From: Telmatocola sphagniphila
Lineage (GTDB): Bacteria > Planctomycetota > Planctomycetia > Gemmatales > Gemmataceae
DNA length: 32,000 nucleotides
NCBI RefSeq assembly: GCF_018398935.1
Contig: NZ_CP074694.1
Coordinates: 6,240,001 to 6,272,000 of the forward strand
Direction: 5' to 3'
Under the pieces are notes generated by a model that was not told where the DNA came from, ran no database searches, and saw nothing but the letters and a program-made list of their open reading frames with translations. Below are positions 1-23,409 of this stretch, piece by piece. A program made the translations under genes and the position numbers. Within the stretch, counting starts at the first letter, position 1. Every line of letters begins with the position of its first letter.

Positions 1-3000
1 GTAGATCCAGTTCGGTTCGCCGAAGCCGTGCACTTTCAGCATGCCATCGGCTGTCAGACAGAAAGATTCGGGCTGAATCCGGCCATGATGCAAACCGACC
101 TGAGAAGCGGTATATAAGGCGAGCCCCGCCTGGGAAATCAAGCGGAACCAGACACCCGGTGCCGCGGCCAGGGCCGGCCATTCGTCTCCCGGCAATCCCG
201 TCAGCCACTCTTGAAGCACGGCCGGTCGCCCGGCGATATCCAGCACCTCATAGGTGGCGCGGATGTTCGGATGGGCCAGATCGCGGGCCACCCGGTACCG
301 TTCCCGATACTCATCGGGGCGGATGGCATCCTGCATTTCGCTCTCGGCCAAATGTCGAAGCAGACAAATGCCTTCCGGACCTTGCGGCCCCGAGCGTCGG
401 GAATCGGCCAGCCCCTGCGGATCGTAGACCTTGTACTGGGCCTCGCGGGATGTGCCCGGCAACCGGTCGATGACGCGGAAGCGACCCAGTACCAGGCCGT
501 TGATATTTCCCGCTTCGATCAGAGCCATCTGATAGACGGTGAGGGCGTTGCTGGCGAGAAGAACCTGCCGCAACTGCTTGTTGGAATTCCTCGCCACCGT
601 CCACAGTGCGTTCAGCGTTTCCGAATCGACCAGATCGTAGGTGCGGAGCATTTCGCCGAGCTTACGATCGCCCGCATCGAGTTCTTCCACTCGAATCGGC
701 ATTACCTGATCTTCCAGCAACATCGGCAGGATCGAATGATCGTCGAGTTCTTCCGGATCTGAGGCGCGACTCCCGTCGACCAGTTCCCGCAGCTTCTGGC
801 GGTACCATTCGCGCATATCTTTCAAATGGCGTTCGACATCGCCCCGTTTCTCGGCGATAAACTTTCGTTCCTTTTCGATCTCTTCGCTCTTGTGAGCCAG
901 TTCGATCGTAGTGACTTCGATGAACGCCTGCTTTTGCGCGCTTTGCGTCTGATTCTGTGCGATCGTCTGCCGCAAACCAGAGAAGCGGCTCTGCCATTCG
1001 AGCAATTGTTGTTTGAAGGAGGCGACCGAGTGCCGATGTTCGGTACGAGCCCGGTTCAGGTTGGCTTCCTGCTGGCGGAGTTTCTCGACTTCACTCGAAA
1101 GTTGATCGCGAATCGCCTGCAGTTCTTCCTGGCTCTGTCGGGCGTAGGAATGCAATTCGGAAAGCTGACCGCGCAACTGATCGCGAACCTGGTTGGTTTT
1201 TTCCAGCGAACCTTGAATGCGCTGTTCGAATTCGGGAATCGAGTTCCGCAATTCGGCGGCGTGACTGGTCAAATCGGTGTGATAGAGACTCAGCTTTTTG
1301 TAAGCTTCGTCGGTCTGCTCGGCCGTCAAACGGCGATCCTGAGACAGGATGGCGCGAACTTCGGCAAGATCGTTCTTCTGTTTCTCGATGGTCGTCTCGG
1401 CCTGACGAAGCAACTCGCTCTGTTGACGGAGCTGTTCGTCCTTTTTGGCCAGTTCGGCGAAGTGGCTTTCCGAGATCTGGCGGGCGGCGATGGCATCGGC
1501 CCGCAGCGATTCCAAAGCGTCGGCCTGTTCCTGAAGCAGTTTGGTCTGATCTTCGAGTTGCTGCGCCTTGTCGCCCAGTTCCTTTTGCTGCTGAGCCAAT
1601 TCATCGGATCGACGGCGCAGCTGTTCCTGCAGTATTCGCCGGGGTTCATCGGCCGATAACAATTCGTTTTCGCGGACCCGAAGCGAAGCGCGATCCTCGT
1701 CGAGCTTGTGTTGAAGTTCGTTCAATTGTGCCGTGCGAGCCTTCCAGAGGGCGGCTTCCTCGGCCAGCTCATCTTTCCGGCGGGCCAACTCCTCTTCCCG
1801 GCGCCGTAGCCCGGTATCCTGATCGGCCAGCTGATCCTGCAAAGCGCGAAGCTGCATCATCGCCTGCCGCATCATTTCGGAGCGTTCCGCGAAGACCTTC
1901 TGACCTTCGCTGACCGAAAGAGTCTGATCCGCCAGCGATTCGCGCAACAGTTCGGCTTCGCGGAGTTTGTCGCGGGCTTCCTTCAGATAAGAGTCCTGCT
2001 TCAGGCGTTCGTCGGCAATACGAGCGGTTTCCTTCTGGAACTCTTCGCGCTCGCGTTCGAGCTGATTGCGAAGATTAGCGAGCATCGCCTGCTGAGTTTC
2101 CAACTGGGCGATGCGAGTATTGAGAACCGATTCGCGGTCCTGAAGGTCGCGCATGCGATTGTACAGCACGGTCTCTTCGAGCAGGATTTTTTCCCGTCGG
2201 TCGTCCAGTTCCCGGGCCTGGCTTTCGAAGGTTCCGGCATCGGCGCGATATTTTTCAAAGTGCGAATCGATTTCGGCAGCGCGGGCCGCCAAATCTTTGT
2301 CTTTCGCATCGAGTTCCAGCTGCAGTTCGCCCAACCGCACCAGATTGGTGCGGAATTTCGCTTTGAGTTCCTCGACGCTCTCGGCATCCCGGTCGATCGC
2401 CGCTTCGCGTTCTTTCAGACGGAATTCCCAGGTCGTCAATTCATTTTCTTTAGCGATCCAGCGTTCCTGCCACTCGCTTTCCTTGGCGAGGTAACGTTCC
2501 TGCCAGGCTTTCTGCTCGGCATCCAGCGCCGCCTGGGACTGCTTCCACTCCTCGTAGCGGCTTTCGATTCCCCGTATCCGGTCTTCGATTTCGGATTCCC
2601 GTTTCAGCAGTTCCTGCCAGCGCGGCTCGAATTGCCGGATCTGATCGTCGTGCATGTTGCGCTGTTCGCGCAGCTGCACCGCCGCTTCCCGAATGCTGAG
2701 CTGGAACCGATCGAGTTCTTCGCCCCGTTTGCGGTACTTTTCGTAGAAATCGGCTTCGAGCTGCGCTCGAAACTGCGAATAGCCGGTATCCTTCTGTTCG
2801 ATCCAGATACGCCATTCCGCTTCGGCCTGTTCGCGACGCTGGGCTAACTCGGCTTCTAGAGAGGTCCGACGATTCGTCAGTTCTTCTTCAATTTCCTGCC
2901 GTCGTTTGTCGATTTCCGATTCGAGAACTTTCCGCCGTTCTTCCCAGTCTTCGGAAAGAACCTTTTCGCGTTCCTGCAGTTCGTGGCGTTGCTGCTGGAG

Positions 3001-3783
3001 TTCCAGTCGCATCCGTTCGATATCGGACTGATGATTGGCGAGTTTATCCCGCCAATCGGCCAGTTCGACATGCTTTTTCTCAATAACGGCGTAGCGATCT
3101 TCGAGTTCTTTGCGCTTGTGAACATCCCCCTCTAATTCCGCACGCGACTGCTGATGTTCTTTCTCCATCTCCTCGCGACGGCGGTACCAGAGGATGCGGT
3201 CGTTCTCCAGCTCCTTCTGAGCATCGTGCAGTTTGCGTTCGCGGGCCTGCAGTTCCTGATGCCGAATGCGGAATTCATTCTCGAGCATCTCTTGAGCGCT
3301 GAGAGCCGGTTTCGAGGGTTTCGGAGGCGCCGGCGGTGGGACAGGTTCGGGCTGTTTCGCTTCCTCCACAGGCGGAGTAAAGGCGGGAGGAGTCTCCGGC
3401 GGCAGTATCGGTTGCGGGGCCGGCACATCCTGATCGATATTCAACAGGATGTCGGTTCGTCCGATGGTGATCGTGTCGCCCTGGTTCAGGACGGCGAGAT
3501 TCGAATTCGATACTGGCTGACCATTCAAAAGCACTGGGGTGTTCTGGGCGACTTTACGAAGTTTCACACCGTCCGGTTTACGCAGCAGAATGCAGACTAC
3601 CGGGGGAAGTCCGGTTCCTGGAAGGCGCAACTCGCAACCGGCGGCCGCGCCGATCAAAAATTCTTCGCGAGTCATTTCCGAGGAAGACGAGGACGATTTG
3701 CCGTGGCGCACCTCGATGCGAACCCCCGGTAACCGCTCGGTGGTCGGCGTCGAAGCTCGCGATCCAAAAAAGAAGCTGGCCAT
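1..3783 (-). CDS. Giant FHA / coiled-coil / kinase-like (probable pseudokinase) protein. The C-terminus runs off the window, with 1261 codons visible.
   Basis: Absent from the supplied ORF track because no stop codon lies inside the window. Manual reverse-strand translation in the register of the ATG (complement of 3781-3783) stays open to position 1. The N-terminus MASFFFGSRAS...EFLIGAAAGCELRLPGTGLPPVVCILLRKPDGVKLRKVAQNTPVLLNGQPVSNSNLAVLNQGDTITIGRTDILLNI has an FHA-fold pattern. A Pro-rich linker follows (PAPQPILPPETPPAFTPPVEEAKQPEPVPPPAPPKPSKP), then about 900 aa of E/K/R/Q/L heptad-like sequence. The last ~185 visible aa look like a protein-kinase N-lobe and catalytic loop (LAHPNIRATYEVL, LHHGRIQPESF, KVHGFGEP). 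The start codon is moderately certain, since no other ATG lies in frame before the upstream terminator. Confidence 0.8.
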   Translation of the reverse strand, partial: MASFFFGSRASTPTTERLPGVRIEVRHGKSSSSSSEMTREEFLIGAAAGCELRLPGTGLPPVVCILLRKPDGVKLRKVAQNTPVLLNGQPVSNSNLAVLNQGDTITIGRTDILLNIDQDVPAPQPILPPETPPAFTPPVEEAKQPEPVPPPAPPKPSKPALSAQEMLENEFRIRHQELQARERKLHDAQKELENDRILWYRRREEMEKEHQQSRAELEGDVHKRKELEDRYAVIEKKHVELADWRDKLANHQSDIERMRLELQQQRHELQEREKVLSEDWEERRKVLESEIDKRRQEIEEELTNRRTSLEAELAQRREQAEAEWRIWIEQKDTGYSQFRAQLEADFYEKYRKRGEELDRFQLSIREAAVQLREQRNMHDDQIRQFEPRWQELLKRESEIEDRIRGIESRYEEWKQSQAALDAEQKAWQERYLAKESEWQERWIAKENELTTWEFRLKEREAAIDRDAESVEELKAKFRTNLVRLGELQLELDAKDKDLAARAAEIDSHFEKYRADAGTFESQARELDDRREKILLEETVLYNRMRDLQDRESVLNTRIAQLETQQAMLANLRNQLEREREEFQKETARIADERLKQDSYLKEARDKLREAELLRESLADQTLSVSEGQKVFAERSEMMRQAMMQLRALQDQLADQDTGLRRREEELARRKDELAEEAALWKARTAQLNELQHKLDEDRASLRVRENELLSADEPRRILQEQLRRRSDELAQQQKELGDKAQQLEDQTKLLQEQADALESLRADAIAARQISESHFAELAKKDEQLRQQSELLRQAETTIEKQKNDLAEVRAILSQDRRLTAEQTDEAYKKLSLYHTDLTSHAAELRNSIPEFEQRIQGSLEKTNQVRDQLRGQLSELHSYARQSQEELQAIRDQLSSEVEKLRQQEANLNRARTEHRHSVASFKQQLLEWQSRFSGLRQTIAQNQTQSAQKQAFIEVTTIELAHKSEEIEKERKFIAEKRGDVERHLKDMREWYRQKLRELVDGSRASDPEELDDHSILPMLLEDQVMPIRVEELDAGDRKLGEMLRTYDLVDSETLNALWTVARNSNKQLRQVLLASNALTVYQMALIEAGNINGLVLGRFRVIDRLPGTSREAQYKVYDPQGLADSRRSGPQGPEGICLLRHLAESEMQDAIRPDEYRERYRVARDLAHPNIRATYEVLDIAGRPAVLQEWLTGLPGDEWPALAAAPGVWFRLISQAGLALYTASQVGLHHGRIQPESFCLTADGMLKVHGFGEPNWIY

Positions 3784-5899: not shown

Positions 5900-6094
5900 T
5901 TAGTTACTGTAGCTTTCCGACGGCAGCCCGGACACCCGAAGAAGTCGAACGCGAAAGGATATAAATCGAGAAACTTCGAATAGGAATGCTTGACCGGACA
6001 TTTTTGGCAGAACATAATGGAATTTAGAATTACATGCCAGCCTGGGCATCGACATTTCCTTCCTTTTCTTCAAAGTCTCTGGGGTTTCTCCATC

Positions 6095-6835
6095 ATGTTC
6101 ATTTTCCGGCGTCTTGTGCCCATTGTGTGCGTGGTTTTATTTGCAGGAGTTCTAGCGGCTGCCGAACGAACTTATTCCGGGGTCGTCGATAAGGTCGATA
6201 CCAAGACCCGAGCCGTTTTGCTGAAGGACTTCAAGGAAGTTAAAGAAAGTAAGGATGGCAAGGAACCTAAAGGGAAAGTGGCCACCTACTATCTCACCGA
6301 TAAAGTCGAGCTTACCGACGACAAAGGAAACAAGATTGATGTGAAGGATGCCCAGAAACTCGAAGGCAAAGAGGTGACGGTCACGCTCAATGAAGCGGTC
6401 AAGAACAACAAGATCGAAGCGACCATCGTTGCCATCAAGATCGGCAAGCCGGATGAGAAAAGGGCAGGTAAGGGCGAAGAGAAGACGGCTAAGCGGGATG
6501 CTAAACGAGAAGATAAAAAAGATGCAGCCATGTCCAAAAACGATCCCTCCAAGGCGAATAAGCCCTCCGATTACACGGTGGTGAGCGCCGATGCCGCGAA
6601 GGGGGAAATTGCCGTGGAGGCCGGGGCCAGCAAGCTGACGATCAAAGTGGATGCCAATACCAAATTCATCGGACCCCGCGGCGGCGACCGGGGGGAAGGG
6701 GTCGCGGCGATGACCGCGGAGGACAATAAGGACCTGTTGACCGCCGGTTACAAGATCAAGGTCGTTATGGAAAAAGGCAAAGTGAAGGAAATTCACCTTC
6801 CCTACGCCAACTCCCTGAAGGATAAAGATAAATAG
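6095..6835 (+). CDS. Secreted Lys/Asp/Glu-rich hypothetical protein
   Basis: The ORF track opens at TTG 5990, but ATG 6095 yields a classical signal peptide MFIFRRLVPIVCVVLFAGVLAAAE. Two beta-rich modules flank a charged linker (KRAGKGEEKTAKRDAKREDKKD). No family recognised. Confidence 0.6.
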   Translation: MFIFRRLVPIVCVVLFAGVLAAAERTYSGVVDKVDTKTRAVLLKDFKEVKESKDGKEPKGKVATYYLTDKVELTDDKGNKIDVKDAQKLEGKEVTVTLNEAVKNNKIEATIVAIKIGKPDEKRAGKGEEKTAKRDAKREDKKDAAMSKNDPSKANKPSDYTVVSADAAKGEIAVEAGASKLTIKVDANTKFIGPRGGDRGEGVAAMTAEDNKDLLTAGYKIKVVMEKGKVKEIHLPYANSLKDKDK

Positions 6836-6857
6836 GATCTTACGGGTGATCTCAGGG

Positions 6858-6887
6858 AGCCCATCGAGTAGATTCGATGGGCTTTTT
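6858..6887 (+). terminator. Rho-independent terminator after the Lys-rich secreted protein gene
   Basis: Stem AGCCCATCGA / TCGATGGGCT (10 bp perfect), 6-nt loop GTAGAT, followed by TTTTAATT. Confidence 0.7.
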
Positions 6888-6925
6888 AATTGGCGGTGAG
6901 CGAATGCCATCAGGAATCTTGACCT

Positions 6926-7189
6926 ATGATTCAGGAATATATCGGGCAGAAAGTGGTCATCGATTTGCGTTCCGAATACGTCTGTCTGGGAACGCTGATT
7001 CGGGTGGATGAACATTTTCTCGAATTGAAAAATGTCGATCTGCACGATTTGCGGGACACCGATACCAGCCGCGAAAATTATGTCATTGCCTCGGTGAAAA
7101 CGGGTGTGAAACGCAATCGCAAAAAGCTCTTACTTTTTCGTTCCGAGCTGGTGGCCATTTCCTTACTGGAAGACGTCGTCGACCAATAA
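6926..7189 (+). CDS. Small Sm-like (LSm-fold) protein, tentative
   Basis: 87-aa ORF. IGQKVVIDLRSEYVCLGTLIRVDEHFLELKNV fits the Sm1 pattern (hydrophobic strand, G-x-L, D, N). KKLLLFRSELVAISLL fits an Sm2-like strand (compare archaeal IVIRGDNVLAIS). A ~25-aa insertion lies between them. The gene ends 9 nt before the SDR gene. Confidence 0.5.
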   Translation: MIQEYIGQKVVIDLRSEYVCLGTLIRVDEHFLELKNVDLHDLRDTDTSRENYVIASVKTGVKRNRKKLLLFRSELVAISLLEDVVDQ

Positions 7190-9244: not shown

Positions 9245-11083
9245 ATGATTAGTTTCTCCTGGAAGCATCGCCGAAGCAATGACTTCTTTTCAAATTTCTT
9301 TGGGAATCCCCCGCTGTCGAGTTCGGCATTCGTCTCCCACCTTCGCGTCGAAGAATTGGAACAGAAAAATACGGTCAGTACGATGATGGGTGTCACTGGC
9401 GATAATATGCTGGTCTCCTTCAATACCAATAGCCCGAATGTTATCACCAACTCGGTTAACATCACCAATCTGGCCGGAACCACGGGTGAAGAACAGGTCG
9501 TCGGACTCTCCTACCGGCCGCGTACCGGACAGCTGTACGGCATAGGCGTCGAAACGGTTAATAATCAGGACTTGCTTCGCCTTTACATGATCAATCCCCT
9601 GACGGGAGTGGCGACTCAGGTAGGATCCAACAGCATCACGCTGCCTCCGGCGCTCTACTATGAAGTGAGCATCAATCCCGCAGCCGATGTCCTGCGCGTG
9701 GAAAGCACGGCCGATGTCAACATTCGCGTGAATCTCAATAACGGTTCTTTGATTTCCTCCGATACCACTTTCAAACCGGCCAGCCTATTGATCGATGGCA
9801 TCGCTTACGACCGAAATTTCAACGGCAACTTGGGTACTAACGGCACAACGCTTTATGGCATCGCCCGCAATGGAAACCAATTGGTGACCATCGGCGGCAT
9901 CAACCAGAATCCCAGTCCCAACAACGGCGCGGTCACTTCAATCGGACCATTAGGTGTGAACATCAGCCCGACGGCCGGTGTCGGTTTTGTGATTCCTCCT
10001 TCGGGAACTGCCGGTGGGACCGGCTATGCGGTGCTCACCGACAACAACACCAATCTGACAGGCCTTTATGCCATTAATCTCGCCACCGGCGCAGCGATCA
10101 AAGTCGGCAATGTCGGTTCCGGAACGACACCGCTCAATGGCTTGGCGGCGGTGCCCAATAGCGTCATTGCGGTCGGTTCCGGTCCGGGTACCAATGCCGA
10201 TGTTCGAGTTGTCAATGGCAACACCGGCGAACAGTTGATGGCGATCTCACCGTTCAATGGTTACCTGGGTGGTGTCAGTGTCGCCTTGGGAGATGTCAAT
10301 CGCGATTCTGTTCCGGATATCATTGTCGGCGCGGGCGCTGGGGCGCCAGGTGGGCATGTGAAAGTCTACGACGGGGCCACCGGAAATCTGATCTACAGTT
10401 TCCTGGCCTTCCCGGGATTCACCGGCGGTGTTCAAGTTGCATCCGGCGACGTCAACGGCGATGGCTATGCCGACATTATTGTGGCGGCCGAAGGGTCCTC
10501 CGGGGCTCAGGTGAAAATTTTCAGCGGCCAGAACGGTACCTTGCTCTCCAGCTTCGGTGCCTATCCCGGTTACAACGGCCAGTTTGCCATCGCCGCCGGG
10601 GATATAAACGGTAACGGGCTCTCGGAAATCGTGACGGCGGCAGCCGCCAACGGGCACATCAAGATCTTTAATGCTCAGGGCGGCGGAGCGACCACACCGG
10701 GGATTCCCAATAGCTTCCTGGAAAACAACGGAGTTTACCGCAATCTGAGCGTGGCGGTGGGCGATGTGAACTTCGACGGCCGACCCGACATCATTGTCGG
10801 CGAACAATATGGCGACGGGTTGATCAAAGTCTTCAGCGGCGCGAATGGCTCGCAAATACTCAACTTCAATGCCTATCCGGGAGGGGCTACCGGTGGTGTG
10901 AATGTGGCGGTGGGCGATGTGACGAGTTCCGGGGAATACTCAATTCGAACGATGCCCGCCGGTACGGGAAATCTGGCTTCGCTGGGGGCGTTCAGCGGGT
11001 TCGATGCCTCGACTCAAGCGGCCTTCACGCCTTTCTTGAACTACGCCGGTTCGGCTTCAATCGCCGGTTATCGGGTTAGCTAA
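9245..11083 (+). CDS. Secreted DUF4394-like / FG-GAP repeat (beta-propeller) protein
   Basis: 612-aa ORF. The N-terminal half resembles DUF4394 (LVSFNTNSPN...VVGLSYRPRTGQLYGIG...LYMINPLTGVATQVG). The C-terminal half has at least 5 FG-GAP-type repeats (GDVNRDSVPDIIVGAG, GDVNGDGYADIIVAA, GDINGNGLSEIVTAA, GDVNFDGRPDIIVGE, GDVTSSGEY). The N-terminus carries LRVEELEQK (9341-9367). Confidence 0.85.
   Translation: MISFSWKHRRSNDFFSNFFGNPPLSSSAFVSHLRVEELEQKNTVSTMMGVTGDNMLVSFNTNSPNVITNSVNITNLAGTTGEEQVVGLSYRPRTGQLYGIGVETVNNQDLLRLYMINPLTGVATQVGSNSITLPPALYYEVSINPAADVLRVESTADVNIRVNLNNGSLISSDTTFKPASLLIDGIAYDRNFNGNLGTNGTTLYGIARNGNQLVTIGGINQNPSPNNGAVTSIGPLGVNISPTAGVGFVIPPSGTAGGTGYAVLTDNNTNLTGLYAINLATGAAIKVGNVGSGTTPLNGLAAVPNSVIAVGSGPGTNADVRVVNGNTGEQLMAISPFNGYLGGVSVALGDVNRDSVPDIIVGAGAGAPGGHVKVYDGATGNLIYSFLAFPGFTGGVQVASGDVNGDGYADIIVAAEGSSGAQVKIFSGQNGTLLSSFGAYPGYNGQFAIAAGDINGNGLSEIVTAAAANGHIKIFNAQGGGATTPGIPNSFLENNGVYRNLSVAVGDVNFDGRPDIIVGEQYGDGLIKVFSGANGSQILNFNAYPGGATGGVNVAVGDVTSSGEYSIRTMPAGTGNLASLGAFSGFDASTQAAFTPFLNYAGSASIAGYRVS
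10268..11020 (+). repeat. Tandem ~50-codon FG-GAP repeat modules inside the 9245-11083 CDS (approximate bounds)
   Basis: A unit recurs five times: G-G-V-x-V-A-x-G-D-V-N-x-D-G-x-x-D-I-I-V...h-V-K-V/I-F-S-G-x-x-G-x-x-L-x-x-F-x-A-Y-P-G. Confidence 0.75.
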
Positions 11084-14196: not shown

Positions 14197-15663
14197 CTAC
14201 TTCTTGCTGATGGTAGCTATACCCGGCGAGGCATTGAATCCTTTCACCAGCTTCGCATCGGCCAGATTCCAAATTCGAACTTCCCCATTGTAATCTCCTG
14301 CGGCAAGCAGTTTTCCATCGGGGCTCAAAGCCAGGGAGTAGACCTGATCGGTCAAACCACTCAGAGTTTTGGTATTCTTTTGCGTCTCGGCTTCCCAGAT
14401 CTTCACAGTTTTGTCGGCACCCGCAGTGGCTAATAGCAGTCGATCCGGTGAGCTGAGGAGTTTCAAGATATCTTCGTTGTGTCCACCCAGAACTTTCAAT
14501 TGTTTCCCCTGGGGAACCGCTTCCCATTGCCGAAGGACATGATCGGCTCCCGCGGAGAAGGCTTTCTTCCCATCTTTAGACCAGGCCACGCCGTAGACGT
14601 TGTTCTGATGTTCCGGAAATGTCGTGATCGATTCTCTATTCATCAGATCCCAGATCTTGGCGGTTTTATCGCGGGCGCAAGAGAGCAACCGTTCGCCAGT
14701 CGCATCGAAGGCGAGCGCGAAAACCCAGTCCGCATGGTTATCAATAACCTGCTCCAGCTTGGCCCGCCGAGCGCCGGCACTGACATCCCAGACCCGAATG
14801 GTTCGATCGCAGCCCCCCGCAGCTAGTAGATTGCCGTCCGGGGAGATTGCGAGACAGAGAATGGAATCGTCGCTATCCAGCAGTTGTTTGCGGAACACCT
14901 GGGGATCGCTGACCCCATCGAGGAAAATAACTTCTCCTTCCTTTTTCCCGGCCGCCTGCAGGTTATAGACGCGAATGTCCCCTTCCTGGCCCGGTCGTGA
15001 ACCGGCGACTATCAGGGAGCCATCGCGGTGAAAGAGCATCGCCAGGGCCCGCTCGGCCCGGGTCCGGAGGCGCTTCGTGAGTTTACTGGAATCGACATTC
15101 CACACGGTCAGTTCGTGGTGACCTCCGGCGACGAGTTCCTTCCCATCGGGAGTGAACGCCAGTGCGGTGACCGGCATGGCGAACTTGTATTGCGTAGGCG
15201 ATGCGGGCGGTTGCCAGCGCACCCGCAACTCTTTCACCAAATCGCTTTTGGTATCGATGCCCGAATCGAGTTTGGCCCCTTGCTCAATCCAACGGCGAAC
15301 GATCTCCGCTTTCTCTTTGGGCACAGCACTGATGCCGTCTTTGCGGGGTGGCATACGGCGATCTTCATTCGTGACCATTAAGTCGTAAAGATCGCTCTCC
15401 TGCGGTTTGCCTGGCGATACGGTTTCCCCATTGGAGCCACCGGCGATCAGTCTGGCAAAGGTAGTCATCTCGTATTTGCCGGAACGCTTTTTGGCATCGT
15501 GACAGGCGAAGCAGTAGTCCTTCAGGATGGGAGCTACATCGTTGATGAAACTGACTGGTGCCGCGGGGGACTGGGCGCAGGTCGACGATTCGCTGTAACG
15601 GAGCAACCAGAGGATCAGTGCACTGAGTAGAGCACAGAAAACGCAGAAACGGAACGATTTCAT
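14197..15663 (-). CDS. Planctomycete cytochrome c (PSCyt1) domain protein fused to 7 WD40 repeats, with signal peptide
   Basis: 488-aa ORF with heme motif CFACH in VAPILKDYCFACHDAKKRSGKYEM...RRMPP. Seven WD40-like units follow (LTVWNV, IRVYNL, IRVWDV, AKIWDL, LRQWEA, VKIWEA, VRIWNL). The N-terminus is hydrophobic. Confidence 0.88.
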   Translation of the reverse strand: MKSFRFCVFCALLSALILWLLRYSESSTCAQSPAAPVSFINDVAPILKDYCFACHDAKKRSGKYEMTTFARLIAGGSNGETVSPGKPQESDLYDLMVTNEDRRMPPRKDGISAVPKEKAEIVRRWIEQGAKLDSGIDTKSDLVKELRVRWQPPASPTQYKFAMPVTALAFTPDGKELVAGGHHELTVWNVDSSKLTKRLRTRAERALAMLFHRDGSLIVAGSRPGQEGDIRVYNLQAAGKKEGEVIFLDGVSDPQVFRKQLLDSDDSILCLAISPDGNLLAAGGCDRTIRVWDVSAGARRAKLEQVIDNHADWVFALAFDATGERLLSCARDKTAKIWDLMNRESITTFPEHQNNVYGVAWSKDGKKAFSAGADHVLRQWEAVPQGKQLKVLGGHNEDILKLLSSPDRLLLATAGADKTVKIWEAETQKNTKTLSGLTDQVYSLALSPDGKLLAAGDYNGEVRIWNLADAKLVKGFNASPGIATISKK

Positions 15664-17214: not shown

Positions 17215-18180
17215 ATGACCAAGCTGAGATTACTCATTCTAACGGTTATTCTGTTAGTCCTGGGCTTTTCCTCGCTCTACAAGGTCGATCAAACCGAGTT
17301 CGCTTACGTCACTCGTTTCGGCGAACCGGTCGTTACTTATGATGGTTCGACCGATGCCGGTTTACACTTTAAGCTTCCCTGGCCAATTGATTCGGTTCTG
17401 CGAATCGACCGCCGGTTACAAGTGTTCGATTTACCGCCAACGGAATCGTTGACTCGCGATCCACAGAATCAGACTGTAGATAAAACCCTGTTGGTGGATG
17501 CCTACGTTTGCTGGAAAATTCCGGATTCCGCGGGTGTCGATAAATTTATCCGGGCGGTGGGCTCGCCCGAGCAGGCGCGCCGGCTACTTTCTCCGAGATT
17601 TAGCAGCCGTTTGGCGGCGGTGATCTCCAATATGCCTCTGGATAATCTGATTCAGGTCGCCGACGTGGCAAAGGTGGATCAGAGAAATCTCACTTTAAAG
17701 AATCAGCTTCTAGGAATTCAGAAATTGGGTCCTAGCGATACGGCGGAGTCGCTGCCTTCGGCCATACTTCGGGAATATGGCATCGAAATAGTTGATGCCC
17801 GACTCCGGAGATTTAACTATCCCGAAGCGGTGCGCGATAGCATTGCCGAGCGAATCCGCAGTGAACGAGGGCGGAAAGTGGCGGACTACCAGAGTGAAGG
17901 GGATCGCCGGTATCGCGAGATTGTCAGCACCGCCGAGCGCGATGCTCGAAAAATTTTAGCCGAAGCTCAGGCGGAGAAGGCTCGAATTGAAGGCAAGGCG
18001 GATGCCGAAGCCGACCAGATTCGCAACGCGGCCCATTCGCAAGACCGCGAATTCTACACGTTTCTGCAAAAGTTGAAAGCCTATCAATCGATGCTCAGCG
18101 ATACGCGAGATTACTTATTGCTTTCGACGAAAAATGAACTCTTCGATCTTCTCCTCAAGCCGCCACCGGTGAAGAAATAG
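17215..18180 (+). CDS. hflC: SPFH/band-7 domain protein, HflC-like protease modulator
   Basis: 321-aa ORF. An N-terminal TM (LRLLILTVILLVLGFSSL) is followed by YKVDQTEFAYVTRFGEP, GLHFKLPWPID, EYGIEIVDARLRRFNYPEAV and a coiled-coil tail ending EFYTFLQKLKAYQ, as in HflC. No hflK is adjacent. Confidence 0.8.
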   Translation: MTKLRLLILTVILLVLGFSSLYKVDQTEFAYVTRFGEPVVTYDGSTDAGLHFKLPWPIDSVLRIDRRLQVFDLPPTESLTRDPQNQTVDKTLLVDAYVCWKIPDSAGVDKFIRAVGSPEQARRLLSPRFSSRLAAVISNMPLDNLIQVADVAKVDQRNLTLKNQLLGIQKLGPSDTAESLPSAILREYGIEIVDARLRRFNYPEAVRDSIAERIRSERGRKVADYQSEGDRRYREIVSTAERDARKILAEAQAEKARIEGKADAEADQIRNAAHSQDREFYTFLQKLKAYQSMLSDTRDYLLLSTKNELFDLLLKPPPVKK

Positions 18181-20688: not shown

Positions 20689-23409
20689 TTGATTGGTTGT
20701 GTACGGGTTTTTAATTATTGTTTTCCCTGTGTCATTGCGTACCACGTGAATATTTGGAAATCGAAAATCCGATTCGATCAAATTCCGGCCGGAAATGGGG
20801 CTGGAAGCGCGAATTGCCTGCCTAACACCGAATCCTCCACGCATTTTGAAGTGGCCGGGGCGAATGTTACCCGGGCGACCGATACCCGTCTGGGAAATTC
20901 CAAGCAAAAACTTCAGATTCCCGATGAAATTGATGGCCGGTACAACCTCTTTGAAGAGCTGGCTACCGGCGGCATGGGACGGGTTTATAAAGCCTATGAC
21001 CGCGTTCTGAATCGCAATATCGCCCTAAAAATCCTGCGCAGCCGGTTCATGGCGCAGGACGAAATTGCCTTGCGATTCATGGAAGAAGCCCAGATCATGG
21101 CCCGACTCCAGCATCCCGGCGTAGTGCCCGTCTATGAGACCGGAAAGCTCAAGGACGGACGACCGTTCATCGCGATGAAGCTGATCGAGGGTTGCACACT
21201 TAAAAATTTGCTTACGGATCGCAGTAATCCCAAGCAGGAACTTGCCCACTACATCAATATTTTCGAACAGGTTTGCCAGACTGTCGCCTTCGGCCATTCC
21301 CGCGGCATCATTCATCGCGATATTAAGCCCGAAAACATCATGGTGGGAGCTTTCGGGGAAGTTCTGGTGATGGATTGGGGCTTAGCGAAAAGTCTCGATC
21401 CCAAATTCGCCTCGCTACAGCCTTCCTTGCAGTGGCCGGTCTCGAAAAATGAGATCGATGACGAAATTGAAGACTTTGAAGACACCAAAGTTATCAAAGT
21501 GAATATGGTTCCGGCGCGTATGCCGGAGGAAAATATCACGAACGCTGGTCAGATTCTGGGCACCTTCCAGTACATGCCCCCGGAGCAGGCTCGGGGGGAC
21601 CACGATAAGCTCTCCTTCCAAAGCGACGTATTTTCCCTGGGCGCCCTACTTTGCGAATTGTTGACCGGCAGCCCGCCCTACAGTTCCGTTAAAGCAGAGG
21701 CCCGGCGGCAGGCTCAAGAAGCCGACCTCCGTCATGCATTCAACATGTTGAATGATTCCGGGGCGGATGCCGACCTGATTCAACTGGCCAAACACTGTTT
21801 AAACGAAAATCCGCACGATCGTCCCAAATCGGCCGAGCAAGTGGCTCTGTCGGTAGGATCTTATCTGCGCGGCGTTCAGGAACGCTTGCATAATGATCTG
21901 GTTCGTCGGATTGCCGCTCAGGCGCACGATCACCACACCCGGCATAAATCGCAAGTTATCAAACAGTTTCGCAATAATGCGATTCTGACATCCATTGCAC
22001 TGTTCATTGTTTTCGTGACCGTCGGATCCTTCCTTCTGATGTACCGCAATCAGCAGTTTCATCAGCGGTACGTCCAGACAGCCCAACAGGAATCGGCCCG
22101 CAAGGAACTCGACCATAAACTGGAAAATGTCACAGCGCTTCTGGGCAAACTTTCCACCAATTCCAGCGATTTCAGCCAGTCGATCGACACGGTGGAGCAG
22201 GCGAGCCAATTGATGCTCGATGCCGATTCCCTCGCTCAACAGACTGCACAACCTATCGCCGATAAAGCCCGAGTCGACGAGTTACGCTCGCAGTGTGATT
22301 CCTGGAAGCAAAATCTGATTTTGTTGGCCGATTTGGAGCGGATCTCTTTTGAGGATGACGAACTCCGACCCGTGAAAAATCGATCCGAAGAGGTCGGCCG
22401 TCGCTATCAGACTGCTTTCCAAAATCATCCTTTGAAACCGCTCGACGGTCCTTTGGAAGATGCCAAAGCCCGACTGCAAGGGTCGTCCATCGAAAGGCTG
22501 CTGCGACCGCATTTGTTAAAATGGTTGAGCCTCGCCGTGGAAGCCGAGCAAAGAAATCGTCTCTCGGGGTTGTTGAAATTTGAAGGGCCCAATCAAAATC
22601 AGATGGCCACTGAATGGCTGCGAGCCGTTCAGAAGAAGGACTCTGATACGCTGGTGCCGATGACCCGATTTTTGCTTTCGGCGAAGTTCGAAGCGGCGGA
22701 ACTCCGCGTTTTCGCCGAGCAGATTTATCAGCTGGGCCATCCCGAAGCCGCTGAGAAAATTCTTTTGAGTGCCCAAGTCAACAATCCAGAGTCCTACGAA
22801 GTCAATCGAGATCTGGGTAGGCTCTATCGACATATACCAGGACGTTCTTCGGATGCCGTTCGCTTTTGTACGGCGGCGTTATATTTACATCCGCGTTCCC
22901 CACTGCCGCATCTGGCTCTGGCCTCGGCGTTACGGGAAGATCATAAAGATGCGGCGGCTCTGCAAGAACTGAAAAACGCCCTGAAGTTGAACGAAACAGA
23001 CTTTCAGACCAACGTCCTTCTGGCAGAACTGGATCGCGAGCAAGGGCGTTTTGCCCAGGCCCTTGTGGCCTATCGCCGCATTCTCACCAAGCCCGAAGAC
23101 CTGAGCCGCGAACAACTTGGCAAAACGAGATTATCTGCCGCGGAAGTGGCGATTCAAGCTACGGCGAGCGATGCCGCCCGCGCACCCGCTCTGCGGCTCG
23201 AAGCGCTGAACTTTCTTCGAAATCAGTGGGTGGCTTGTAGCATGGACCGCCGGCCGGAAGATCGCAGCGAGTTCGAAAGCTGGCTGAAAAATGAAATTTT
23301 TGCCCCCGTCCGGAAACCCTCCTTTCTCGAAAAATTGGATGAGAAAGAGCGTGCGGACTGGACCACCTTCTGGCAGGAAGTGGAAAGTGGACTGCAAATC
23401 AATCCCTGA
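20689..23409 (+). CDS. Transmembrane Ser/Thr protein kinase with C-terminal TPR-like region
   Basis: Hanks motifs GGMGRVYKA, IALKIL, HRDIKPENIMV, DWGLAK (DFG variant) and GTFQYMPPE. One TM (AILTSIALFIVFVTVGSFLLMY) is followed by ~430 helical/TPR-like aa. No in-frame ATG precedes the kinase domain. TTG 20689, GTG 20746 and GTG 20851 are the candidates, so the start is uncertain. Confidence 0.9.
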   Translation: MIGCVRVFNYCFPCVIAYHVNIWKSKIRFDQIPAGNGAGSANCLPNTESSTHFEVAGANVTRATDTRLGNSKQKLQIPDEIDGRYNLFEELATGGMGRVYKAYDRVLNRNIALKILRSRFMAQDEIALRFMEEAQIMARLQHPGVVPVYETGKLKDGRPFIAMKLIEGCTLKNLLTDRSNPKQELAHYINIFEQVCQTVAFGHSRGIIHRDIKPENIMVGAFGEVLVMDWGLAKSLDPKFASLQPSLQWPVSKNEIDDEIEDFEDTKVIKVNMVPARMPEENITNAGQILGTFQYMPPEQARGDHDKLSFQSDVFSLGALLCELLTGSPPYSSVKAEARRQAQEADLRHAFNMLNDSGADADLIQLAKHCLNENPHDRPKSAEQVALSVGSYLRGVQERLHNDLVRRIAAQAHDHHTRHKSQVIKQFRNNAILTSIALFIVFVTVGSFLLMYRNQQFHQRYVQTAQQESARKELDHKLENVTALLGKLSTNSSDFSQSIDTVEQASQLMLDADSLAQQTAQPIADKARVDELRSQCDSWKQNLILLADLERISFEDDELRPVKNRSEEVGRRYQTAFQNHPLKPLDGPLEDAKARLQGSSIERLLRPHLLKWLSLAVEAEQRNRLSGLLKFEGPNQNQMATEWLRAVQKKDSDTLVPMTRFLLSAKFEAAELRVFAEQIYQLGHPEAAEKILLSAQVNNPESYEVNRDLGRLYRHIPGRSSDAVRFCTAALYLHPRSPLPHLALASALREDHKDAAALQELKNALKLNETDFQTNVLLAELDREQGRFAQALVAYRRILTKPEDLSREQLGKTRLSAAEVAIQATASDAARAPALRLEALNFLRNQWVACSMDRRPEDRSEFESWLKNEIFAPVRKPSFLEKLDEKERADWTTFWQEVESGLQINP

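Follow-up and report, generated by a model that had tools for sequence, protein, structure and literature searches.

We analyzed a window of 32,000 nucleotides from Telmatocola sphagniphila (contig NZ_CP074694.1, positions 6,240,001 to 6,272,000), the left end of which is occupied by a minus-strand open reading frame (ORF) that encodes a very long, largely helical protein. The frame (1..3783, minus strand) starts at the ATG at position 3783, and its translation contains zero stops over 1261 codons down to base 1, exactly as a preliminary description of this DNA had stated, the C-terminus being cut by the window edge. Residue numbers refer throughout to the protein encoded within the window. 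In the 5' direction from the ATG, the same frame holds a stop codon, at the end of a glutathione peroxidase gene, and no further ATG, and the N-terminus aligns with the N-termini of relatives. Complete relatives, such as the closest one, P0001 (1366 amino acids [aa], 68% identical), carry about 105 additional C-terminal residues, in line with the earlier statement that the kinase-like domain at this end is truncated by the window. In P0001, these residues complete the C-lobe, include a basic RKGxKxK patch, and close with a tail that terminates in ...LRxSA. The large frame had been omitted from the ORF list for the sole reason that the list drops frames running off the window edge. Four plus-strand ORFs of 183 to 277 aa are listed in the same region (211-762, 826-1659, 2260-2847, and 3154-3732), each of which is antisense to the minus-strand frame in codon-aligned register. 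A Pfam search of these four ORFs returned zero family matches, and they were rejected as genes on both grounds; they are antisense shadows, as the preliminary description had held. The minus-strand frame is the real gene, since it has 52 full-length homologues (881 to 1376 aa, with E values between 1e-76 and 0) and relatives are encoded at 175 genome loci.

The protein begins with an FHA-fold domain of the YscD/kinesin-3 type (aa 21 to 116; 3436..3723, minus strand), on which Pfam, the structural model, and Foldseek agree. Pfam assigns aa 25 to 115 to PF16697, the YscD cytoplasmic domain family of the FHA clan, at 37.2 bits against a cut-off of 33.2 (E = 3.7e-9), and the AlphaFold model places beta strands across aa 21 to 116 with a predicted local distance difference test score (pLDDT) of about 88 to 92. 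The top 50 Foldseek matches of a 1200-residue model are all FHA domains, with target-normalised TM-scores up to 0.90, and they include those of YscD, PscD, Rad53, FhaA, Ki67, GarA, and KIF13A. The best PDB sequence match of the head is the non-canonical FHA domain of the kinesin-3 KIF13B (E = 0.0017). Membership in the FHA superfamily, which the preliminary description had suggested as an FHA-like fold, is therefore supported both by the fold and by a sequence match above a curated threshold. A Pro-rich disordered linker follows (aa 120 to 163; 3295..3426, minus strand), with 18 Pro within aa 121 to 159 and a model pLDDT of 30 to 36; it corresponds to the Pro-rich segment of about 45 aa noted earlier and is 4 to 65 residues long depending on the family member.

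The residues by which canonical FHA domains read phosphothreonine (Gly-Arg, Ser-x-x-His, and Asn-Gly) are mostly gone from this head, and only the Asn-Gly pair (N87 G88) is retained. At the position of the canonical "GR" Arg, 0 of 38 relatives have Arg, and S, G, T, or A is found there; Pro stands in place of the Ser in 33 of the 38, one relative keeping Ser; and no relative has His at the His position, which is L, V, or I except for Cys or Ser in two relatives. Judged from these alignments, the FHA domain is degenerate, the Arg, Ser, and His for phosphothreonine binding having been lost. The block of aa 41 to 80, which holds the loops forming the canonical FHA peptide-binding face, is nevertheless among the most conserved of the whole protein. 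Since the loop face is conserved despite the loss of the phospho-binding residues, the domain probably has a specific ligand, and probably a non-phospho one.

The YscD match raises the question of a component of a secretion machine, either of the YscD/PrgH type of the type III secretion system (T3SS) or of the EssC/EssB type of the type VIIb secretion system (T7SSb), and the T3SS FHA domain 4d9v is the top Foldseek match as well. We regard this role as highly improbable. The chain is devoid of transmembrane segments (maximum 19-residue hydropathy, 1.24 to 1.38), no secretion genes are found in the window or in 83 related loci, and the YscD match reflects only a shared, degenerate type of FHA domain.

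The Pro-rich linker leads into a helical rod, in which two parts can be distinguished: an N-terminal part of variable length (aa 164 to 493; 2305..3294, minus strand), helical, rich in E, R, K, and Q, and broken at 331 to 336, and a C-terminal part of fixed length (aa 494 to 1004; 772..2304, minus strand), helical with heptad periodicity. On the model, DSSP assigns helix to aa 164 to 330 and to aa 337 to 1004. The rod is composed of E (16%), R (12%), L (12%), Q (10%), and A (9%) in the main and has 3 Pro in 841 residues. Its hydrophobic periodicity is 3.48 to 3.58 in most 84-residue segments across aa 169 to 1008 and 3.66 to 3.68 in three of them, with z values of at least 2 in about half, and the best period becomes irregular outside the rod. 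The protein thus possesses the long heptad-periodic helical rod of bacterial coiled-coil scaffold and filament proteins. If fully extended, 841 residues at about 0.15 nm each would measure about 125 nm, and the corresponding range across the family is 100 to 126 nm. A self-BLAST of the rod found no internal repeats. Model confidence dips at about residues 335, 494, 624, 715, and 850, at or close to G334, G485, G627, P714, and P850, which may mark five low-confidence hinge points. The preliminary description had proposed an uninterrupted coiled coil of about 900 aa; the long heptad-periodic helix stands, but its length is about 840 aa, with the break at 331 to 336 and these five predicted hinges.

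The two parts of the rod differ in their variability among 49 full-length members. The N-terminal part spans 152 to 338 residues with low sequence conservation, the exception being a conserved ELEADRxLWYRRR island at about aa 190 to 206. The C-terminal part spans 503 to 535 residues and contains several near-invariant islands (LEGQQAMLAxLRTRLE, LQEQLRRR, AREQLRGQLAELHxYARQSQ, RxEHRLAVAxFRQQLIEWQ, and ERHLxDMREWYRxKLREL). No co-variation is seen between the lengths of the two parts (r = -0.34), contrary to what would be expected of an intramolecular antiparallel hairpin of the SMC/Rad50 kind. A rod able to grow at one end, as a parallel dimer, would fit this length pattern.

This point bears directly on the names under which several family members are found in public resources such as JGI, namely, "chromosome segregation ATPase," "DNA repair exonuclease SbcCD ATPase subunit," and "Zn-ribbon protein." The first two of these names, together with weak NCBIfam SMC matches, would suggest an SMC/Rad50/SbcC-like ATPase of chromosome segregation or repair, a reading to which we give almost no credence and which was rejected. 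The SMC models score at most 40 bits against cut-offs of 567 to 729 and match coiled-coil arm positions only; a conserved Walker A motif is missing from the family alignment; the protein has neither an ATPase head nor a hinge, its ends being an FHA fold and a kinase fold; and an antiparallel arm would require the length co-variation that the two rod parts lack. Having neither a transmembrane segment nor a conserved Walker A motif, the protein appears to be soluble and not a nucleoside triphosphatase. The public labels are artefacts of coiled-coil composition, and the ATPase-type annotations of this family need correction.

Behind the rod, the model shows a second disordered linker (aa 1005 to 1035; 679..771, minus strand), 21 to 57 residues long across the family, and then a module of four short helices with two tandem motifs (aa 1036 to 1097; 493..678, minus strand), which matches the helical module expected after the rod from the preliminary reading. 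The motifs are RKLGELLxxLxLVDxxTLxxLW and SLRQVLLxxGxLTLYQLALIEAGN. With 62 to 67 residues in every member, the module ranks with the best-conserved stretches of the protein. Pfam gave no match to it and a PDB search none that was significant. The motif pair resembles the MshEN/GSPII N-terminal pair of pilus and secretion ATPases, although without statistical significance. In Thermus PilF, the module profile aligns in a single register with residues 6 to 51, 164 to 202, and 334 to 375, which we take to be the starts of the three GSPII domains of PilF, but the alignment is weak (E = 4 overall). Compared with the MshEN motif RLGxxLLxxG[IL][IL]xxxxLxxxLxxQ, several residues are replaced, including Gly by Arg in motif 2. 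The putative likeness to MshEN is hence a lead only.

The C-terminal domain (aa 1098 to 1261; 1..492, minus strand) comprises an N-lobe and a C-lobe up to the DFG-equivalent position, where the window ends. The kinase fold was modeled on the C-terminal region of P0001 together with 25 family sequences, giving a pLDDT of 89.9 and a predicted template modeling score (pTM) of 0.85. A Foldseek search with this model retrieves the kinase domains of PknA, PknI, PknB, and Stk1 (E of about 1e-11), and the family profile detects StkP (E = 2e-11) and PknB (E = 1e-7) by sequence only. The bilobal fold and the detectable homology place the domain in the Hanks-type Ser/Thr kinase superfamily, so that the kinase-like domain proposed at this end is upheld. 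The Pfam Pkinase model stays below threshold on the family, which kinase surveys have therefore probably missed.

Every catalytic residue is absent from this domain in all relatives examined, as determined from HMMER alignments to StkP and a census of 38 relatives. The beta3 Lys is Arg in 38 of 38 (Arg1143 in the window protein) and the alphaC Glu is Arg in 37 (Arg1162). The HRD motif reads His-Gly-(Arg/His/Gln/Asn) and never has the Asp (H1233-G1234-R1235). The catalytic-loop Asn is mostly Ser and in no case Asn (Ser1240), and the DFG Asp is Gly in 38 of 38 (G1253-F-G1255, with EPxW directly after). The Gly-rich loop has no glycines, and the activation segment is about 20 residues shorter. 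None of the 38 relatives has the set that marks an active Ser/Thr kinase (Gly-loop, Lys, Glu, HRD Asp, Asn, and DFG Asp). The window provides an internal control, a 906-aa Ser/Thr kinase with C-terminal TPR repeats at 20689-23409 (plus strand; Pkinase E = 2.8e-41), which retains GGMGRV, ALKIL, HRDIKPEN, and DWG. TPR-bearing Ser/Thr kinases of this sort are typical of the expanded kinome of Gemmataceae. Since the kinase in the same window keeps all its motifs, the catalytic losses are specific to the family and not a habit of the lineage. Because all the catalytic residues are missing from all 38 aligned relatives, the C-terminal domain is, on its sequence, a pseudokinase and catalytically dead.

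The degeneracy of both signaling-type domains had escaped the preliminary description, and it reinforces the claim made there that the protein is not an enzyme: the kinase fold lacks every catalytic residue in 38 of 38 relatives, and the FHA domain lacks its phosphothreonine-binding residues. An atypical but active enzyme, whose catalytic residues have migrated or which performs AMPylation or glutamylation as SelO and SidJ do, has to be weighed here, as other "pseudokinases" have proved active (PMC12599244), and His1233 and many arginines are invariant at the N-lobe and catalytic-loop region. We consider this very unlikely: the Gly-loop, beta3 Lys, alphaC Glu, catalytic Asp and Asn, and metal-binding Asp are all replaced together, there is no conserved acidic residue at the metal-binding positions, and the activation segment is shortened as described above. 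The invariant N-lobe arginines are R1103, R1107, R1118, R1143, R1160, R1162, and R1186, and complete relatives have a conserved basic patch, RKGxKxK, inserted in the C-lobe (alignment A1, between about columns 1636 and 1665). Basic patch and arginines could together form a putative surface for an anion, a nucleotide, a lipid, or a nucleic acid. In PADLOC, the pseudokinase region (1-765, aa 1065 to 1255) matches PD-T4-6 only (E = 3e-8), which we take to be a kinase-based defense candidate. A role in anti-phage defense was rejected, the match being judged a generic similarity of kinase folds and the neighborhood not being defense-like.

The family is confined almost entirely to one order. When one genome per GTDB species was scanned, a locus encoding a relative turned up in at least 175 species representatives, almost all of them Gemmatales. 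Among the best 80 of the 175 loci, from which the taxon labels were taken, 65 are labeled Gemmatales, Gemmataceae, or one of six genera (Gemmata, Zavarzinella, Fimbriiglobus, Frigoriglobus, Urbifossiella, and Limnoglobus), 11 are labeled planctomycetes only, two belong to Isosphaeraceae-labeled metagenome-assembled genomes, and the remaining two lie on short contigs in non-planctomycete bins and are probably binning errors. Each of these best 80 loci comes from a different assembly, indicating that the gene is single copy. When a library of 1.84 billion cluster representatives (50% identity) was queried with the C-terminal profile, 206 clusters were found at E <= 1e-30; relaxing the threshold to E <= 1e-10 gave 4113, which are ordinary kinases. 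The pseudokinase domain is C-terminal in every long member, in proteins of about 1050 to 1633 aa.

In a divergent short-form subfamily (P0190 and P0196-P0198; 836 to 864 aa), head, module, and pseudokinase (hhalign E = 8e-38) are all retained. Its head is of the same FHA type ('LVLGSALGCDIRLPVELPPV...NGQ') and is followed by a short helical stretch and then by a long, acidic, Pro-rich disordered region that replaces most of the rod. The loci of the short form (L082 10001-12595 and L083 736-3330) come from metagenomes only and have housekeeping neighbors (MutL and glyoxalase). Since the short form keeps the ends together without most of the rod, the end domains look like the functional core and the rod like a spacer.

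The gene neighborhood is not conserved. Upstream of the gene in the window are the glutathione peroxidase and an M16 peptidase, and the contexts of other members consist of unrelated housekeeping genes, three contexts having been inspected individually. When 719 ORFs from 81 loci were clustered, no family occurred in more than 11 loci. A conserved operon or partner was rejected on these grounds, and the gene stands alone, with no operon.

What could be the role of a protein in which both signaling-type domains have lost their chemistry? One answer is an adaptor in phospho-signaling, in which the pseudokinase would pair allosterically with, or be phosphorylated by, an active kinase, the FHA domain would read a phospho-site in a non-canonical manner, and the rod would space or dimerize the two. 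Pseudokinases often regulate active kinases, and the strong conservation of the FHA loop face would agree with such a role. Gemmataceae have about 100 to 140 Ser/Thr kinases (PMC11032199), one of which lies in the window, and the phosphorylated MviN pseudokinase recruits an FHA protein (PMC12599244). Against this stand the absence of the phosphothreonine-binding Arg in 38 of 38 relatives, of the Ser in 37, and of the His in 38; the lack of a kinase or phosphatase neighbor in the inspected contexts and the clustered loci; and a rod of about 840 residues with a conserved part of fixed length, which is hard to justify as a mere linker. We therefore rate the adaptor as rather unlikely.

We favor, with moderate confidence, a soluble, non-enzymatic, rod-shaped scaffold or tether that is specific to Gemmatales and has binding heads, with a head-to-tail contact between FHA domain and pseudokinase as the partner model. 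The folds of the parts, the lost catalytic and phospho-binding residues, the heptad-periodic rod, the conservation, the phyletic distribution, and the absence of an operon are the observations on which it is built, and from them we infer dimerization, the scaffold role, which the preliminary description had already suggested, and the FHA-pseudokinase contact. The FHA head, on its flexible Pro-rich tether, would serve as a protein-binding module with a conserved loop face and not as a phospho-reader. The rod would most likely be a parallel homodimer. Its C-terminal portion of about 510 residues would probably act as a docking platform or ruler, since it is fixed in length and has conserved islands, and its N-terminal third would be a spacer of variable length. 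The tail, on the second flexible linker, would consist of the four-helix module fused to the pseudokinase and would bind protein without being an enzyme. As for partners, the simplest proposal is that the pseudokinase of one molecule is bound by the degenerate FHA domain of another, after the phosphorylation-independent YukB/EssC-YukC/EssB contact; this head-to-tail contact is plausible by analogy, and it could yield head-to-tail chains or networks.

Several points weigh against the scaffold or tether reading. Function, localization, oligomeric state, and partners are all deduced from sequence and models, and the confidence of the full-length monomer model is low overall (pTM 0.30). Along the N-terminal third of the rod, heptad periodicity is no more than moderate (z of about 0 to 3), so that this stretch may be a lone stable helix instead of a coiled coil. 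The invariant N-lobe arginines could form a ligand site for nucleotide or anion binding of the pseudokinase type. The unconserved neighborhood, finally, gives no hint of a function.

A stronger and more specific form of the scaffold explanation is a self-assembling cytoskeletal filament, held together by head-to-tail contacts, by lateral coiled-coil contacts, or by both, that would shape the invaginated membranes or take part in FtsZ-less budding. Its length and heptad character are like those of bacterial filament formers with coiled coils, the gene is single copy and conserved across an order with unusual cell architecture (PMC8567305), there is precedent for the binding of a degenerate FHA domain to a pseudokinase, and the short form keeps the two ends together. 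However, the flexible end linkers of 30 to 45 residues suit tethering as well as polymerization, and the existence of a short form without most of the rod indicates that lateral coiled-coil packing is not essential to the core function. A self-assembling filament is thus unlikely. More speculative still, and quite unlikely as a whole, is a Gemmatales-specific cytoskeletal or tethering subunit whose parallel coiled-coil dimers of about 100 nm would join head to tail by a phosphorylation-independent FHA-pseudokinase contact, perhaps made responsive by the MshEN-like module to a nucleotide second messenger such as cyclic di-GMP, and would organize the invaginated membrane or the FtsZ-independent budding apparatus.

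Other genes in the window lie apart from the rod protein gene. A 488-aa WD40 beta-propeller protein is encoded at 14197-15663 (minus strand; WD40 E = 9e-56), WD40 proteins being among the eukaryote-like repeat families that are expanded in Gemmataceae. At 9245-11083 (plus strand), there is a 612-aa protein with DUF4394 (E = 1e-40) and FG-GAP repeats, an integrin-like propeller element. An SPFH/Band 7 protein, a type of membrane-microdomain scaffold, is encoded at 17215-18180 (plus strand; E = 3e-23), 13 kb away, and is unlinked to the rod protein family in other genomes. Two overlapping ORFs on opposite strands (5990-6835, plus strand, 281 aa; 6152-7045, minus strand, 297 aa) are both without a Pfam match.

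Gemmatales bud without FtsZ and have heavily invaginated inner membranes, and few of the structural proteins behind these traits are known. A single-copy, order-wide rod protein of about 1300 residues with conserved binding heads is a concrete candidate for a component of Gemmatales cell architecture, and its gene is present in culturable Gemmataceae such as Gemmata species and Zavarzinella formosa. A search of the literature for the combination of FHA domain, rod, module, and pseudokinase in planctomycetes found no description of it, and together with a comparison with seven pseudokinase families, this agrees with the earlier impression that the architecture belongs to no characterized family. 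Long coiled-coil scaffolds joined to a signaling domain that has lost its chemistry are a known kind of bacterial protein; the architecture seen here and its pseudokinase family appear to be new.

The known kind is represented by AglZ and FrzS of Myxococcus, in which a pseudo-receiver is joined to a long coiled coil and which, with Scy and FilP of Streptomyces, are non-enzymatic polar or cluster scaffolds. The rod protein shares with these scaffolds a very long heptad rod fused to a chemically dead signaling-type domain, but the end domain of AglZ and FrzS is a receiver, whereas here defined domains, FHA and pseudokinase, stand at both ends, and no relationship in sequence to these scaffolds was detected. 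The kinesin-3 proteins KIF13A/B also have a non-canonical FHA domain ("LIGS...L.G.G..P..C") adjoining a coiled coil (5djo); these are eukaryotic motor proteins, however, and the rod protein has no motor domain. Rad53 and Chk2 likewise carry an FHA domain and a kinase fold on a single chain, but there both domains are functional and adjacent, while in the rod protein both are degenerate and about 900 residues apart.

Among bacterial pseudokinases, a 2025 review catalogues seven families, ActPs1-3, GLW, CP1, DYD, and DLHK, which come from actinobacteria, proteobacteria, or cyanobacteria and are partnered with PQQ, transmembrane, COG3899, or helicase domains (PMC12599244). They resemble the present family in their Hanks-type fold and degraded motifs, and ActPs2 also has Arg in place of the beta3 Lys; in contrast, none of them is from planctomycetes, and none has an FHA domain or a coiled coil. 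The motifs LLRH, xHG[RH], and G[FL]G, the FHA and coiled-coil partners, and the Gemmatales range fit none of the seven, as far as the families are set apart by the descriptions in the review, so an uncatalogued bacterial pseudokinase family would be added to them.

The closest parallels to the proposed contact are two systems in which an FHA domain docks onto a pseudokinase. Mycobacterial FhaA docks onto the pseudokinase of MviN (MurJ), a member of the ActPs3 family, in a phosphorylation-dependent manner (PMC12599244), and the FhaA-MviN structure (PDB 3oun) is among the Foldseek matches. The likeness is that of a bacterial pseudokinase serving as an FHA docking site, but the FHA domain there is canonical, MviN is an actinobacterial membrane flippase, and its motifs are VALT and Lsidhpsr, compared with LLRH, HGR, and GFG in the rod protein. 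In the T7SSb of Bacillus and Staphylococcus, the FHA domains of YukB/EssC lack phospho-binding residues and bind the YukC/EssB pseudokinase independently of phosphorylation (PMC9600267), which is the same pairing of a degenerate FHA domain with a dead kinase fold. These are separate membrane proteins of a secretion machine, however, whereas the rod protein is one soluble chain with about 840 residues of rod between the two domains and no secretion genes around it, and its pseudokinase is nearest to kinases of the PknA/PknB/PknI type, with EssB outside the top matches. The rod protein would be the first case of a degenerate FHA domain and a pseudokinase on one chain, and the FHA-pseudokinase pairing of type VII secretion thereby looks like a more general interaction module.

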